Below are positions 52,897-58,615 of a DNA stretch of 64,000 nucleotides, one piece after another; position 1 is the stretch's first letter; each line of letters starts with the position of its first letter. The notes below the pieces were generated by a model. The model was given only the letters and a program-made list of their open reading frames with translations. It had not been told where the DNA came from and did no database searches. The stretch is from Dehalococcoidia bacterium (lineage in GTDB: Bacteria; Chloroflexota; Dehalococcoidia; Plut-88900), in assembly GCA_965249275.1 (NCBI GenBank), contig CBDFLQ010000006.1:608001-672000 (forward strand). The letters run 5' to 3'. The position numbers and the translations under genes are program-made.

Positions 52897-54693
52897 CTAA
52901 GGACTGTACCCCGAACCCCCGGAGCCGCCCTCATAGCTGGGCAGCGTATTCACAAGGTAGGCCAGCACGTAGTCGAAATCGTTGTACGAGTCCAAGTAGG
53001 ACAGACCCGACCTGAAAGACTCCAACCGACTCTTTAGCGCCCTCAAATCACTGCCTATTAGCGATGCCCCTTCTGCCTCCACGTACGGCAGGCTGCCGTA
53101 GCTATCGGAGGCCAGGGCCACTATCGACCCGAACCGCAGCAAGTCGTCACCCGAGTCGTCAAATCGGATGTCGTTGTAACCCCGAATCTCCGCGTCCTGC
53201 TGCCTCGTTTCCCCGCTGATGGGAGTGACCCACCTGACATGCACGTCTCCCAGCCTGATGGGCTGTCCACTCGGGGCTCCGGCCCTGTGAGTCAGCCGTA
53301 TTTCGTAGAAGACGGTTGTCGCAGTGCCGGATGGAATCTCCGCAAACTCCTTCCGGTTCTCCTCGAAGGCCTGGTCGGGGGCTATCCGATTCTCGTACCC
53401 GACAAGCCGCCACGAATCAACCGACGCAGGGTCCCACTCCACCTGGGCTCGAGTCTGGTCGGCAAAGGGAGTCGAGATTGTGGTCCAGTTATCCCGGCTG
53501 AACGTGGCCCGGGCCTGGCTTGCATCATCCAGATACCTGTACCATCCGTTGCCATACTGCGCCAGCTGCTCCAGCAGGTAGTCGTTGTAGTTCTCGATAC
53601 CCACCCCGATAGTGATAAGCCGCAGCGGATTGTTGCTTTGCCGGTCGTCCGCCGTCCGCAGGATTGCAAAGGGGTCCGTCGCATCCACGTTGGCAACGCC
53701 GTCCGACATCAGGATCACGTAGTTGTAGGAGTCGGGGCGGTCATACCGCATCCGGTCGGCGATGCGTACGCCCAGGTTAAGTCCGGCCTGCACGTTGGTG
53801 CTGTTGTTGGGCCGAAGATTCCCTATGGAATTGGAGACCGCTCGGTCATCTGGCCTCCGGCTTTCAACCGTGTACCGGCCGATGATGTCATCCGAAAATT
53901 GGACGACGGATATGCGATCATTACTCCCAAGGCTATTTCTTATCGAGTCCGCCGCCGCCCGAGCTATTTCCACCCGGTTCCCACTCGACATTGACCCCGA
54001 GGCATCCAGCACCAGTGTTACGTTGAGGGGCCTGTTATCATCCCTCACGTCCGGGGCCTGGAACGTTATCCGGGCCAGGTGCATCTCGCTCTGCAGCGGG
54101 TGCTCCACCAGCGCCGAGGAGATTGCAAAGCTGTTGTTGTCTCTCGGCCGCGCGTACTGGTAGTTGAAAGCGTTGACCCATTCTTCCGCTCTCACTGAGT
54201 CCGGGTCGACCTGGTATCCTTCCCTCGCCCAGTTCAGAGCAAGCTGGAACGACGTGCGGTCGGTGTCCAGGCTGAACGTGGAAGTTCTGTCCCGAGATGT
54301 CGCAACCAACGGGCTGCGCCGGTAGTCCTGGAAAGTTGTCGCCGCAGGCACGGCGGTCGGGAACGGCGCTTCTGCACTGTCTGCGCCTGAACGGGCCCAT
54401 GCAAACGGGGTTGGTTCCGGCATCGCCGTCGCCCCTACAGAATAGGATGAAGAGCTATCTTGACCGGAGTCGGCGCTTTCGGCCATCGCTGTCGGCTCTG
54501 GCATCGCCATCGCCGGCACCGCAGTTGATGTGGCCCTCACCTCGTACGAATCCGAGTCGGGCGTATAGGAAGTACTATCTTGTCGCTCCCTCATCGCCCC
54601 GGGCGTTGCCGTCGCACCTTCTGCACAAGCGAACCCCACTATCGCCACCACCATTGTCAAAATCAGGGCCATTGCTAAATGTCTAAACAGCAT
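52897..54693 (-). CDS. vWA-domain lipoprotein (YfbK-like)
   Basis: Lipobox-like GFAC, low-complexity linker, STFSLDTD, VRAEEWVNAF, MIDAS DASGS, MSDGVAN, LVGYENR. Confidence 0.88.
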   Translation of the reverse strand: MLFRHLAMALILTMVVAIVGFACAEGATATPGAMRERQDSTSYTPDSDSYEVRATSTAVPAMAMPEPTAMAESADSGQDSSSSYSVGATAMPEPTPFAWARSGADSAEAPFPTAVPAATTFQDYRRSPLVATSRDRTSTFSLDTDRTSFQLALNWAREGYQVDPDSVRAEEWVNAFNYQYARPRDNNSFAISSALVEHPLQSEMHLARITFQAPDVRDDNRPLNVTLVLDASGSMSSGNRVEIARAAADSIRNSLGSNDRISVVQFSDDIIGRYTVESRRPDDRAVSNSIGNLRPNNSTNVQAGLNLGVRIADRMRYDRPDSYNYVILMSDGVANVDATDPFAILRTADDRQSNNPLRLITIGVGIENYNDYLLEQLAQYGNGWYRYLDDASQARATFSRDNWTTISTPFADQTRAQVEWDPASVDSWRLVGYENRIAPDQAFEENRKEFAEIPSGTATTVFYEIRLTHRAGAPSGQPIRLGDVHVRWVTPISGETRQQDAEIRGYNDIRFDDSGDDLLRFGSIVALASDSYGSLPYVEAEGASLIGSDLRALKSRLESFRSGLSYLDSYNDFDYVLAYLVNTLPSYEGGSGGSGYSP

Positions 54694-54777
54694 TTCTCGG
54701 ACCTCCTTCTGGTCGTGTATAGACTGTTAGACGTTTAGCCCTTGTCTTTTGTTCCCTTCCGCTCCCACCTCTCCATC

Positions 54778-55155
54778 CATCATTCTCGTGCCCCGACACG
54801 GGAATCCACTCCCCAGGCGCGGGGCCGCTCACCCTGAGCGACGAGTCGAAGGGTCGAGCGAGGGGTGGCCCACCTTTGCCAATCCGTCGCCTGTGCCACC
54901 CCACCCACCCCCTACCCCTCCCGATGCCCCGCGAGGGATCTAAAGCGCCCGCCTGCACAACACAGATGCCTATCCGACCATCCTTGTCCCTCTTCCACCC
55001 CCTTCATTCCCGACTCCGATCGGGAATCCATCCCCCTCCCCCCAGTACTGAATTAGAGGCCCACGTGCGTGCTCTGCACGCACGTGGGCCTCTATTCTTA
55101 TCTCCCCCTCTCCCTTAATGGCCCTAAGGGAGAGGGGGATCAAGGGGGTGAGGGT
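54778..55155. repeat. Mosaic of different REP-like palindromes
   Basis: TCATTC..GGAATCCA hairpins (54778, 55004); CCCTGAGC..TCGAAGGG unit (54825); 19-bp perfect IR (55054-55094); CCCTCTCCC..GGGAGAGGG + GGGGTGAGGG element (55103-55155). Confidence 0.75.
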
Positions 55156-55203
55156 TCCCCTGTGGGGCTGGGGCGGTGTCCCCCCAAGTGTGACACGACC
55201 CCC

Positions 55204-55233
55204 TTGACCCGATATGAACATTAGTGCTATTCT
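55204..55233 (+). promoter_or_regulatory. sigma70-like promoter with a LexA-box-like site in the spacer
   Basis: TTGACC-18nt-TATTCT with extended TG; GAAC-ATTA-GTGC at 55216-55227. Confidence 0.5.
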
Positions 55234-55419
55234 CCCCACCGTTCGAACACCACCCTAACTATCTCAAGGAGGAACCAAAAACCCAGGGAAGCCCACCCGA
55301 CCCACCCGAGGACTCAACGTCCCAGCCCATCCCAAAGGGCGGCCCACGCGCCGCCCCACGGCTCAAGCGAAAGCCGCCATCTCCTCATCCATAGGTCCCG
55401 GCCCACCCTTCCCCAACCC

Positions 55420-55895
55420 TGGCGATGGAAGACGCCTTGGATTCGTAAAACTGAAGACTCCACCACCTCTTACCAGGTGGTCGAGAGCAGGTCTCCTCTC
55501 TTGTGAGTGAGGAGGTCTGAAAAGACCCGACGCCACCGTGCGAAGCGGGCAGGGCGCTCATTAAGTGCCCACGCGGAGGGGCCGGACCGAGCCGAGAAGT
55601 CCTCGGTGTCCCCCGTGTCTAAGTCGTTTCCGCCGTCGCTCCCGGCTCCCGGACGCTTCGGCAATGTTTGAATTACTACTCCTGTGGGGCCTACAGCTGG
55701 ACCCGGCCCCCTTAGGCTGCTCTAAAGCAGTACAGCCAACCCACGTGTAGGAGCCGTGTCGGACCGCCCGCCCCGGTCGAGTCCATGCAGCAGTCGAGCA
55801 AATGGGGCAGCGGCAGGTGCGTCCCCACCCCGGGACGCCCGAATCCCCGCTGTATCGCAACAGGGGCACCTTCCAAAGAGCGTCTTCCATCGCCA
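55420..55895 (+). ncRNA. Candidate large structured RNA (alternatively a MITE); family not recognised
   Basis: Perfect 16-bp terminal IR, at least 7 internal hairpins with + strand G-U pairs, C(UUCG)G loop, no credible ORF. Confidence 0.55.
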
Positions 55896-55954
55896 ACCCA
55901 CCAACCAAAAAACCCAAAGCAGTCCCAACCCCCCACAACTGAATCCCCCACCCC

Positions 55955-55963
55955 TGCTATAAT
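55955..55963 (+). promoter_or_regulatory. Extended -10 promoter of the amidohydrolase operon
   Basis: TGCTATAAT 30 nt upstream of ATG 55993, with a GGAGG RBS. Confidence 0.6.
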
Positions 55964-55992
55964 CGGCTCATCCCCTCCCCCGGAGGCCACAC

Positions 55993-57078
55993 ATGAGACC
56001 GCCATTTCAGGTCATAGACTCCGACGGCCACATCAACGAGCCCGAAGAGATCATCGCTACCTACTTGCCGCCTCCCTACGACGCCTATCTCCACGCCTGG
56101 AAGCCCAATGCAGAGGGCGCCATCCACTACAACAACACCTTGGTGCCCAAGCAGCCCGGCATGGACCCCACCATGGGCGGCACCCTGGGCACGAACGGCC
56201 CTGCAGGTTTCCCCTTCCCATCCGACTGGCTTGCAATCATGGACGAGGCCGGAGTTGAGAAGACCTACCTCTATCCCACCGCCTTCCTTCCCTACTCCAT
56301 GATGGTCGACCCCGAATACACCGTCGCCGTGACCCGGGCCTACAACTCCTTCATCCACGATCACTGGCTGCAGGTCAACGACAGGTTCGGCGCGGTCGCC
56401 GTCATGCCCCTGCTGGACGCCGAGGAGTCCGCCAAAGAGCTGCGAAGGTCGGTGACAGAGCTCGGTTTTGCGGGGGCATTCACACCCGCCGTGGGCTACG
56501 GACTTATCGGCAGGAAGCAGAACCACCCCTTCTTCGCCGAGGCCCAGGACCTCGACACCACCGTCGCCATCCACGGCGGCCACGCTACGGCCGAATACAT
56601 CCCCTACACCCGGTTCATCCAGCGCCACGCCGTAGGATTCCCGGTTTCGCAGATCATCCAGATGACCAGCCTCGCCCTGGAGGGAATCTTCGAGCTATTC
56701 CCCACCCTCCGCGTCGCCTTTCTTGAAGCCGGATGCACATGGGTGCCCTACATGCTCGACCGGCTCGACGAGGAATGGGAGCTCCGCGGCAAGGTCGAGG
56801 CCCCCAACTGCAAGCGCGCTCCCAGCGAGTACCTACGCGGCAACAACGTATTCGTCCACCTTGAACCCGACGAGAAACTCCTCCCTCAGACCATCGACAT
56901 CCTCGGCGACGACGCCCTGGTCTACGCCTCCGACTGGCCTCACTGGGACAACGACTTCCCCAACAGCATCGACCACATCTGGGGTAGGGAAGACATCACA
57001 GAAGGTCAGAAACGGGCCATCCTCAGGGACAATCCCCTCGCCATGTACGGCATCAGTGACTCGGAAGGAGGCGTTTAA
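55993..57078 (+). CDS. Amidohydrolase_2 family protein
   Basis: IDSDGH, LYPT, AIHG, LEAG, ASDWPH. Confidence 0.92.
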   Translation: MRPPFQVIDSDGHINEPEEIIATYLPPPYDAYLHAWKPNAEGAIHYNNTLVPKQPGMDPTMGGTLGTNGPAGFPFPSDWLAIMDEAGVEKTYLYPTAFLPYSMMVDPEYTVAVTRAYNSFIHDHWLQVNDRFGAVAVMPLLDAEESAKELRRSVTELGFAGAFTPAVGYGLIGRKQNHPFFAEAQDLDTTVAIHGGHATAEYIPYTRFIQRHAVGFPVSQIIQMTSLALEGIFELFPTLRVAFLEAGCTWVPYMLDRLDEEWELRGKVEAPNCKRAPSEYLRGNNVFVHLEPDEKLLPQTIDILGDDALVYASDWPHWDNDFPNSIDHIWGREDITEGQKRAILRDNPLAMYGISDSEGGV

Positions 57079-57512: not shown

Positions 57513-57616
57513 TTCTTCCGCCAACCGTCCACCTGTCCGGCCCCGGAGACAGTATTCTTGCCTCTTAGCTGTCGCCTCGCTAAACTGTGCCTCACAGAAC
57601 CTGTGAGGCTGTGACC

Positions 57617-57898
57617 ATGAAAAACATCACCCTATCCATCGATGAACACACCCATCGGCAGGCGCGTATAAGAGCTGCGGAGTTGGGCACTTCGGTGTCC
57701 GCTCTGGTCAGAAGCTACCTCCAGTCACTGATAGCCCAGCCCATTGAAAAACCCGTAGCCAATGGACAGGACACAGAGACTCCCCTTGAGCGTCAACAGC
57801 GTCTCAAAGACTTCTTCGAGGGATTCGACGCCAGAGGCAGAGGAGTATCCGAGATTCTCCCTCGCGAAGCCATCTACGACCGCAATGCGCTTCGTTGA
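57617..57898 (+). CDS. RHH-type (CopG/DUF6364-like) antitoxin, copy 1 (orphan)
   Basis: MKNITLSIDE..RQARIRAAELGTSVSALVRSYL; C-terminal REAIYDR. Confidence 0.85.
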   Translation: MKNITLSIDEHTHRQARIRAAELGTSVSALVRSYLQSLIAQPIEKPVANGQDTETPLERQQRLKDFFEGFDARGRGVSEILPREAIYDRNALR

Positions 57899-57917
57899 TA
57901 CCAACCAGAAACTGTGA
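57885..57917 (+). pseudogene. Stub of a PIN toxin gene (MRFVDTN then QKL*)
   Basis: First 7 codons encode the same residues as the start of the toxin at 58202, then the sequence jumps to the repeat start. Confidence 0.75.
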
Positions 57918-57927
57918 GGCTGTGACC

Positions 57928-58215
57928 ATGAAAAACATCACCCTATCCATCGATGAACACACCCATCGCCAAGCTCGTATAAGAGCTGCGGAGCTGGGCA
58001 CTTCAGTGTCGGCGCTCGTCAGAAGCTACCTCCAGTCACTGATAGCCGAGCCCGTGGAGGAGAAGGTGACTGAAGAGGAGTCGGAGACGCCCATCGAACG
58101 TCGGCGCAGACTCCTGAAAGGGGCAGTTGACTCTATTACCGCAAACGGAGGGGGATTGCGCATGTCAGAGAATCTCCCCCGAGATGCCCTCTATGACCGC
58201 AATGCGTTTCGTTGA
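57928..58215 (+). CDS. RHH-type antitoxin, copy 2 (cognate to the PIN toxin)
   Basis: Same N-terminal 39 aa as copy 1; overlaps the toxin start. Confidence 0.85.
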   Translation: MKNITLSIDEHTHRQARIRAAELGTSVSALVRSYLQSLIAEPVEEKVTEEESETPIERRRRLLKGAVDSITANGGGLRMSENLPRDALYDRNAFR

Positions 58216-58615
58216 TACCAACGTCCTGCTCTACGCCGCTTGTGCTCTATCCGAGGAGGCTAACAAGCGCCATCGCGCCATCGACCTCCTAAAGGAAGGT
58301 GACTTAGCGTTGTCCGTACAGGTAATTCAGGAGTTCTACTACCAGTCAACTCGGGTGAGTCGTCAGGCACACATAACTCACGAACAAGCCATAAATTTCA
58401 TTGGGAGCATGGACACCTTTCCGGTACAGCCCATTAATCTCGACATCTTCCATGCAGCAGTGTCGATCTCCCAACGCTTCCAGTTGTCATACTGGGACGG
58501 TGCAATCCTCGCCGCCGCCCGAGCCCTCCGCTGTGACGCCGTCTACTCTGAAGATATGAGCTCAGAGCAGGACTACGACGGCCTCCGAGTCATAAACCCG
58601 TTCACCGCCCCATAA
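58202..58615 (+). CDS. PIN-domain (VapC-like) toxin
   Basis: FVDTNVLLY, QVIQEF, LSYWD, YSEDM, INPF. Confidence 0.92.
   Translation: MRFVDTNVLLYAACALSEEANKRHRAIDLLKEGDLALSVQVIQEFYYQSTRVSRQAHITHEQAINFIGSMDTFPVQPINLDIFHAAVSISQRFQLSYWDGAILAAARALRCDAVYSEDMSSEQDYDGLRVINPFTAP

Follow-up and report, generated by a model that had tools for sequence, protein, structure and literature searches.

We examined a 64,000-nt stretch of DNA (the window) from a Dehalococcoidia bacterium (assembly GCA_965249275.1, contig CBDFLQ010000006.1, positions 608,001 to 672,000 of the forward strand), in which an earlier note had proposed a large structured RNA at window positions 55420-55895. The locus is a 1.3-kb gap between a minus-strand gene that ends at 54693 and a plus-strand gene that begins at 55993 and matches the Pfam family Amidohydro_2 (E 1.7e-33). 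Within this gap, 16-nt arms at 55420-55435 and 55880-55895 are exact reverse complements and close a non-coding stretch of 476 nt, referred to here as the element; the complementarity that the note had described, including its inward extension by TTGGA (55437-55441) and TCCAA (55872-55876), was borne out. Its description of a balanced composition between C/A-rich flanks also agrees with the base shares, which are G 0.30 and C 0.33 in the element, C 0.46 and G 0.19 in the leader, and A 0.43, C 0.45 and G 0.06 in the trailer. The + strand promoter that it had placed upstream was found at 55204-55233 as TTGACC-18-TATTCT with a TG extension, the sole promoter-like site within 54650-56050, and no terminator-like site was detected 3' of the element in the window.

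In the comparison with shuffles that the note had proposed, both strands folded better than shuffled sequence. As + strand RNA the element reached -220.2 kcal/mol, compared with -184.1 ± 6.6 kcal/mol for 100 shuffles, none of which equalled it (z -5.44), and the - strand gave a z of -3.60. The stems previously read at 55462-81, 55488-519, 55552-70, 55571-618 and 55807-53 are present in the sequence and in the minimum-free-energy (MFE) or RNAalifold structures. A C(UUCG)G tetraloop at 55656-61 had been misread, since CGGC at 55659-55662 is the 3' strand of a helix whose partner is GCCG at 55632-55635.

A search of the whole genome (2.9 Mb, 87% complete) with the element identified one further full-length copy, at 82% identity, and many loci that match its ends only. 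By BLAST of the intergenic region, with copy numbers that reflect BLAST sensitivity, the stretch 55180-55445 has about 54 copies, the interior two, and the 3' arm with some 50 nt beyond it about 20. The 54 copies of the 5' module are 73-100% identical, and for 53 of them a complementary 3' arm follows at a distance of 360-557 nt. The search for copies proposed in the earlier note thus revealed about 53 dispersed homologous units, and its central idea needs to be amended: a novel multi-domain + strand RNA is supported, whereas a single 476-nt object is not, being one of these many copies. Two of the 53 units were left out of later alignments, and flank and tail counts are given over 51 copies.

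Clustering divided the units into 11 subfamilies, with identities of 82-99% within and 36-68% between them; that of the element has two members in its own genome. The outer 12 bp of the terminal helix (xGGCGATGGAAG / CTTCCATCGCCx) are invariant across the roughly 53 copies. The inner part of the helix varies by group yet stays complementary, as GACGC/GCGTC or GGTCC/GGACC. Inner arms formed a more stable duplex with their own partner than with that of another subfamily (-16.6 against -13.8 kcal/mol; own partner better in 80 of 115), a weak contrast given that all arms are GC-rich.

The repeated unit extends well beyond the arms on either side. An alignment of 13 copies of another subfamily shows, in all 13, a sudden onset of similarity at AAAAGTGACACGAACCCCTTGAC, just 5' of the conserved -35, and in the window BLAST cover jumps from about 17 to 34-54 copies at 55180. 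On the 3' side the CA-rich tail ends in CCCACAAYYGAAKA; the motif A[AC][CT][TC]GAA[TG] lies within 120 nt in 44 of 51 copies (median +38 nt), compared with a background of 1.4 copies, and homology to orthologous loci without this unit picks up again at about 55946-55953. The real unit is therefore the stretch from about 55186 to 55944, comprising promoter, leader, RNA and tail (Table 1). Across the family, leaders are about 190 nt long and the folded interiors measure 360-550 nt. A tail-type motif was present 230-700 nt upstream of the 5' arm in four of 51 units against 5.1 expected, by a pattern that misses the window's own upstream GTACTGAAT. The direct repeats ending in ACTGAAT (55033-55053 and 55924-55944) were considered as attachment-like brackets and rejected, as they are not general. 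The repeat pair C5:710288/716485, considered as a 6.2-kb element, was likewise rejected, as it consists of two opposed units of 448 and 409 nt.

Some units hold insertions. In the sister copy of the element (L002:1501-2027, that is G000 C7:509339-509865), 46 nt are inserted in the loop of hairpin Pc (columns 313-358 of alignment A5); they resemble a small GGAAC-ATCCGCCTCTGGAGGA repeat found after many units' tails, and would be a nested mini-repeat that the fold tolerates. A further insertion, of about 133 nt, occurs in unit C5:488010-488553.

We then turned to the conservation of the fold. For the element's own subfamily (eight sequences from five genomes), RNAalifold returned 127 pairs, and 96.6% of the 972 cells pair. 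Four pairs were changed on both sides, compared with 1.7 ± 0.8 in shuffled alignments (7/500), and slid partners were 38-48% paired; because these sequences are close relatives from which the structure was itself derived, the covariation within the subfamily is only suggestive. In the 55571-618 arm, pairing is kept in two sequence versions despite substitutions and a compensating 1-nt indel, pair 155-199 being CG in four sequences and GC in three. By eye, four subfamilies share helix Pa with a GCUCC loop, CGGC(A/G)AAC, helix Pb with a CUGGA(C/U) loop, hairpin Pc, ACAGCCAACCC, GGAGCC and hairpin Pd, each shared helix differing in sequence from subfamily to subfamily. The pseudoknot between the GCUCC loop and GGAGCC appears in two copies as GGUUCC with GGAACC, and in one as CACUCC with GGAGUG. 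Equivalents of the proposed long-range helix P2 were also seen by eye in three other subfamilies (CTCCT/AGGGAG, ACG-CCTGC/GCAG-CGT and GGCTG/CAGCT).

Twelve cores of a single other subfamily served to build a covariance model (R1) of a 170-position core with 33 specified pairs. Over 752 kb of loci plus the window it gave 46 matches at E ≤ 1, all in unit orientation; window positions 55630-55792 were matched over the full model (25 bits, E 1e-5), as were members of three other subfamilies. Covariation was assessed on the R1 alignment, which has 43 distinct rows, a few weak matches among them probably being false, and 39 pairs including the pseudoknot. Standard pairs made up 92.6% of cells compared with 74.9% after shuffling, 28 of 39 pairs were changed on both sides compared with 18.4 ± 1.5, and 229 cells were doubly changed compared with 76 (0/500 shuffles in each case), with a covariation score of 0.319 against 0.111; all of these measures are inflated by the relatedness of the rows and by an alignment fitted to the model structure. 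With slid partners, 35-46% of cells paired and 8-15 pairs were doubly changed. Covariation, the lack of which the note would have counted against a functional RNA, is seen in this alignment. A second model (R2), built from 39 matches, scored the window copy at 103.6 bits and found again seven full-length members that had been held out, all at E ≤ 3e-10.

By clustering, the core fold is common to 29 of the 53 units, namely those of this copy's subfamily and three others. The undetected interiors are of the cluster-4 type or belong to the whole GGTCC/GGACC inner-arm group (G000 C5, C6 and C7; loci L053-L128), and these 24 units have promoter, leader, invariant outer helix and tail in common with the others. 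One frame thus carries at least two or three interior classes. A Pb-like hairpin with a CUGGAU loop was noticed in one of the undetected classes.

The same alignments bear on the strand. Cells with G-U or U-G outnumber those with A-C or C-A by 77 to 4 across subfamilies and by 79 to 14 within the element's own, a count biased by structures derived on the + strand; it agrees with the earlier note, which had read such G-U pairs as favouring a + strand RNA. This asymmetry, the promoter and the better z on the + strand point to the + strand as the RNA strand. The copies differ by indels of 1, 2 and 46 nt, which rules out a conserved reading frame.

The element matches no known RNA family. In agreement with the note, which had recognised no RNase P, tmRNA, SRP, group I/II intron or riboswitch, Rfam gave no match at the gathering score over the 64-kb window, none at E ≤ 10 over 55420-55895, and none at E ≤ 0.1 over nine loci (62 kb) that hold other subfamilies. 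Neither Rfam 15 nor the full-text literature searched yielded a description of such a family, subscription journals and supplements lying outside that search. The 5' module and leader were present in each of the nine genus genomes and in none of 52 others from a class sample that also took in three further genera of the same taxonomic family. When 185,579 species genomes were scanned for an exact pattern, at least 79 stretches matched, and among the matches listed all come from six chromosomes of Dehalococcoidia bacterium metagenome-assembled genomes. Over 151 genomes of the class, R1 matched in the genus only, apart from one 20-bit match in G020 that we take as chance, as it lies inside a 405-aa open reading frame (ORF) and has neither the CTGGAC nor the CAGCCAAC motif. 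R2 gave no match at E ≤ 0.001 in 150 further genomes of the phylum, in scans of a size that are filtered more strictly, and nothing similar was found in plasmid and phage collections. Among the genomes searched, the family is restricted to one genus.

We compared the amidohydrolase locus among the genus genomes (G000 to G008). G000 and G003 carry the element's subfamily; G002 and G005 carry a cluster-4 unit, with an interior 95% identical to a G000 copy elsewhere; G001 has a cluster-2 unit, and G004 a cluster-8 unit further upstream. In G006-G008 no unit was present within 1.5 kb, which provides the empty-site alleles that the earlier note had wanted sought. Over 960 nt and without a break, the unit of G002 aligns to a G000 locus elsewhere, and its flank is orthologous at 95.7%. 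A second locus shows the same pattern of turnover. The module exchanged is the whole unit (about 0.9 kb) together with some of the repeat modules upstream of it, and not just the stretch between the arms of the inverted repeat. At loci L044-L046 (G006-G008) the unit-free gap is filled by another C-rich module (...GACCGGCGGGTC...CCCCGCATCGCCCGGGGCCGCCCC...CCCTGACCC...), which also ends in CCCAAAACTGAATA; from their sequences, tail-type ends may be common to several module families of the genus.

Such turnover invites comparison with a plain miniature inverted-repeat transposable element (MITE), the alternative that the note itself had offered, in which a transposase would bind the terminal inverted repeat and the internal hairpins would have no significance of their own. 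Its predictions hold in part: there are many dispersed copies, 82-99% identical within subfamilies, no copy departs from the 12-bp terminal inverted repeat, whose ends are of the TG..CA type, and sites are empty or otherwise filled in congeners. Dispersed copies and empty sites are among the observations that the note had named as refuting its RNA reading. Target-site duplications, however, are missing. The ACCC that the note had seen beside both arms is there and not meaningful, as identical 4-nt flanks occur in one of 51 copies compared with a shuffled mean of 1.95; for k = 2-6, identical flanks were found in 5, 1, 1, 0 and 1 of 51 copies, none above the shuffled expectation. Conserved sequence reaches beyond the repeat, by about 235 nt on the upstream side and about 50 nt on the downstream side and always in the same orientation, which also counts against a MITE, as do the covarying internal helices and pseudoknot, the exchange of the whole unit, and the lack of anything similar in the plasmid and phage collections. 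The genome holds no longer element with these ends, all 56 matches at up to two mismatches lying in units or isolated, and no autonomous transposase element with the same ends was detected in this genome or in plasmid or phage collections, the other genus genomes not having been searched exhaustively. We therefore consider a MITE quite improbable.

An element spread through its RNA was considered as well, i.e., an RNA that is retro-mobile, self-splicing or circularising (for example, a permuted intron or a degenerate group II-like one), with the terminal helix bringing its ends together. The long helix joining the 5' and 3' ends, the large pseudoknotted fold and the many copies in subfamilies would suit it, and permuted group II introns that form circular RNA are reported from nature (PMC8637638). 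Group I and II models, on the other hand, gave no Rfam match even at E ≤ 10. The Pfam reverse transcriptase domain RVT_1 is absent from the element's own genome at its 87% completeness and present in three of nine genus genomes, compared with nine of nine for the unit family, and the TnpB-type zinc-ribbon domain (PF07282) is absent from the genome. The promoter, moreover, lies 5' of the presumed start and would not be carried by an RNA copy, yet it is conserved with the unit. To this explanation we attach hardly any credence.

The genomic settings of the units, taken from a crude codon-usage gene caller, bring in another possibility. Of 53 units, 51 are intergenic; 30 lie in divergent, five in convergent and 17 in tandem gaps, and one at a contig end without an upstream gene. 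A same-strand gene follows downstream of 41 units at a median of 188 nt, which mostly reflects the 30 divergent settings. We rejected a binomial test of orientation on this count (41/53, p 8e-5), as in divergent and convergent gaps the outcome is independent of how the unit is oriented. In tandem regions, the only setting where orientation informs, 11 units were co-oriented and six opposed. Units favour promoter-side gaps, and their orientation is not clearly constrained. The 41 downstream ORFs matched 68 Pfam families with no common theme; Amidohydro_2 was the commonest (6/41), and others included tRNA synthetases, LGT, arginase and sulfate permease. This functional diversity argues against a single-ligand sensor.

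With such settings the unit could be a mobile promoter and leader cassette acting in cis, in which an extra promoter and a structured, processed 5' leader would alter the expression or mRNA stability of the gene downstream and the RNA itself would have no role. Besides the intergenic, divergent and downstream-gene counts, the missing terminator-like site 3' of the element and the gain and loss of units upstream of a gene that keeps its own promoter speak for this idea. Against it stand the tandem regions, with no clear bias, and the conserved promoter of the downstream gene itself, which was kept in nine of nine genus genomes whether or not a unit lies upstream. A 400-500-nt pseudoknotted, covarying fold with loop motifs also exceeds the needs of a stabilising leader. 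Finally, contig word depth over the element is tens of times that over the downstream gene, as detailed below, although such depths are a poor measure of expression. On balance we regard a purely cis-acting cassette as unlikely.

Signs of transcription came from RNA libraries. Eight metatranscriptome runs from three studies hold small shares of the stretch's words, and contigs of four runs were placed at ≥88% likeness. One of these four runs is labelled 'sponge metagenome'; the small word shares of the eight runs were not used as evidence of habitat. Contigs cover 55304-55910, including one of 226 nt over 55622-55800 (word depth 238, six other letters), one of 458 nt over 55639-55910 (depth 8.9) and one of 1279 nt ending at 55910 (depth 27). 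Summed word depth over the element was about 90-820 (X1) and 9-166 (X3), compared with 2-7 over the downstream gene, sums that run over contigs, copies and relatives. The uncovered 55176-55303 (X1, X2) and the recurrent contig ends at 55413/55414 are uninformative on RNA ends, contigs breaking where repeats diverge. DNA carry-over is an unlikely cause of the cover, because the interior has only two copies per genome. The cover is consistent with an abundant RNA, without being proof of one; for the metatranscriptome check raised in the earlier note, the contigs give cover and carry neither strand nor ends.

Taken together, the data support the view that the element belongs to a genus-specific, dispersed family of large RNAs with pseudoknots, each unit having its own promoter, and that these units come and go as mobile DNA does. 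Our preferred explanation, with a probability of about 0.6, is that each unit is a self-contained RNA gene, that its long invariant terminal helix is where the RNA is processed or bound by protein, and that the product works in trans. The unit would be transcribed from its own sigma-70-type promoter, and the terminal helix of about 22 bp, with its invariant outer 12 bp, would be cut in the manner of RNase III and/or bound by protein. Cutting would release a stable RNA of about 0.4-0.5 kb from its leader and tail, and this RNA may act in trans as a ribonucleoprotein or catalytic RNA, not as a one-gene sensor. The units probably spread by recombination between repeated flanking modules and not by cut-and-paste transposition; recombination between shared flanking modules would be the simplest mechanism of turnover. 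A wider reading, which we put forward as tentative and somewhat doubtful, is that the conserved frame (promoter, C-rich leader, 12-bp helix and CA tail) forms a general expression-and-processing cassette for several unrelated large structured RNAs, shuffled as modules of about 0.9 kb.

Several points weigh against the explanation of a trans-acting RNA gene. A plain MAFFT alignment of four subfamilies (33 sequences) gave RNAalifold only eight pairs and no compensatory change, because helix arms are out of register between subfamilies, and the covariation measures of the R1 alignment are inflated as stated. R1 and R2 detect no core in 24 of 53 units, so the claim of one fold covers part of the family only. 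The placing of 51 of 53 units between genes, 30 of them in divergent gaps near gene starts, fits a role in cis too, and the identity within subfamilies, the invariant TG..CA-ended terminal repeat and the presence/absence polymorphism are also traits of mobile DNA. Word depths measure expression poorly, and contigs carry neither strand nor ends. For the family, the fold, the strand and the turnover we rely on the results of tools; the processing at the terminal helix and the action in trans are steps that we infer.

Table 1. Features of the repeated unit and of the adjoining gene start (window positions)
Feature	Position	Strand	Basis or remark
Conserved block AAGTGTGACACGACCCCC just 5' of the -35	55186..55203	+	Sharp 5' boundary of the repeated unit
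Sigma-70-like promoter, TTGACC, 18-nt spacer, TG-extended TATTCT	55204..55233	+	-35 and -10 conserved across copies
C-rich leader	55240..55419	+	Motifs AAGGAGGAAC 55266-55275, GAGGACTCAACGTCC 55308-55322, GCCGCCATCTCCTC 55373-55386
Leader hairpin GGGCGGC/GCCGCCC	55337-55356	+	Some copies swap in GAGCGGT/ACCGCTC or GGCTCTGC/GCAGTGCC
Terminal helix P1, 5' strand (55420-55435), with extension P1b TTGGA (55437-55441)	55420..55442	+	Exact complement; alifold
5' domain of four subfamily-specific hairpins (55462-81, 55488-519, 55552-70, 55571-618)	55459..55618	+	MFE; alifold
Conserved core	55630..55792	+	Covariance models R1 and R2
Helix Pa	55632-35 with 55659-62	+	Core
Pseudoknot GGCTCC/GGAGCC	55644-49 with 55750-55	+	Core
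Helix Pb GGGGCC/GGCCCC	55686-91 with 55705-10	+	CTGGAC in loop, 55697-702
Hairpin Pc CTGC/GCAG	55717-20 with 55727-30	+	Core
Core motifs CGGCAAT and ACAGCCAACCC	55732-42 (the latter)	+	Core
Hairpin Pd	55756-88	+	Core
Proposed long-range helix P2, CTCCTGT/ACAGGGG	55679..55685 with 55860-55866	+	Alifold helix 12
3' domain hairpin GCAGCGG...GCGTCCC/GGGACGC...CCGCTGT	55807..55853	+	MFE; alifold helices 17 and 18
3' strands of P2 (55860-66), P1b TCCAA (55872-76) and P1 (55880-95)	55860..55895	+	Complementarity; alifold
CA-rich trailer with tail motif ACAACTGAAT (55935-55944)	55896..55944	+	3' boundary of the repeated unit
Amidohydrolase gene's own promoter TGCTATAAT (55955-63), GGAGG (55982-86), ATG (55993)	55955..55995	+	Outside the unit

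Many copies have a GTAC-N4-6-GTAC palindrome in their -35/-10 spacer, e.g., TTGTACACATGTAC (G000 C7:460844-461095), which is lacking in the window copy; by its sequence, this palindrome could be an operator. The gap contains other repeats upstream of the unit. Positions 54760-54950, adjoining the start of the minus-strand gene, are a different C-rich repeat module with some 30-64 genomic copies at BLAST sensitivity. Positions 55027-55165 form a hairpin module, with perfect palindromes of 19 bp (55054-55094) and 15 bp (55103-55139) and about 22-37 genomic copies. Its first hairpin, with a T-rich tail, scores as a + strand terminator and sits after a tail-like CCCCCCAGTACTGAAT, as though ending an earlier degenerate unit. 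Weak Rfam matches at 55100-55142 (flavivirus SL6 and miRNAs) reflect the 15-bp palindrome only. Elsewhere in the window, 57587-58615 holds tandem ORFs of 103 and 106 aa with near-identical N-terminal halves (...MKNITLSIDEHTHRQARIRAAELGTSVSALVRSYLQSLIA...), followed by an ORF of 162 aa. The start of the latter (FVDTNVLLYA...) is presumably PIN-like, and the trio could represent a VapC-type toxin whose antitoxin has been duplicated.

Bacterial RNAs that are large, intricately folded and without an assigned function are seldom found, and every new class so far has led to new biology. The traits that set the present family apart are its roughly 50 copies per genome, each with a promoter, its single frame with differing interiors, and the exchange of whole units among sister species. 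If the RNAs are functional, their units make up about 1.4% of the genome (estimated as 53 × ~750 nt in 2.9 Mb), and the RNAs may be a large share of the transcriptome of this uncultured Dehalococcoidia lineage. If the wider cassette reading were true, the family would be a previously undescribed system of RNA-gene cassettes, supplying abundant RNAs, possibly catalytic or in RNA-protein particles, to a likely sponge-associated bacterium. If the units are instead selfish, they would represent a new route by which DNA spreads without transposase-type hallmarks. Whichever reading holds, the many natural variants offer a rich data set for solving the structure.

Among known systems, the HEARO or IscB omega-RNA (RF02033) is a large, structured, pseudoknotted bacterial RNA with up to dozens of copies per genome and ties to mobile DNA. 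The present family resembles it in size, pseudoknot and multiple copies, and differs in giving no Rfam match, in having no adjacent IscB/TnpB-type gene, and in units with their own promoter, leader and tail. OLE, GOLLD, ROOL and raiA are also several hundred nt long, with intricate folds, conserved unpaired motifs and, for some, high expression. They are generally found as single or few copies per genome and are phylogenetically broad, whereas the present family has some 50 copies in one genus only and matches none of their Rfam models. The rRNA precursor stems cut by RNase III, in which a long conserved helix of about two turns brackets the mature RNA, would be an analogy of mechanism only for the terminal helix, without any relation in sequence.

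Dispersed intergenic repeats provide another comparison. BOX of pneumococci, Correia of Neisseria, ERIC/IRU of enterobacteria and REP/BIME are transcribed modules with terminal complementarity and sometimes promoters or RNase III sites; conserved end modules surround a variable middle, and they span about 35-300 nt, mostly as simple hairpins. Compared with these repeats as generally described, the present unit is about 750-900 nt long with a multi-helix, pseudoknotted and covarying interior of 400-500 nt, and it has none of the target-site duplications associated with Correia elements. A further comparison is with the 'Mobile/repeat sequence candidate' class of the Breaker-lab intergenic pipeline, which comprises sequences with multiple copies per genome that are predicted to be selfish and are reported as often associated with transposase, integrase, nuclease or helicase genes (PMC11109978). 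By that definition the present element would be sorted into this class, yet its 41 scanned downstream genes are ordinary metabolic and housekeeping genes.

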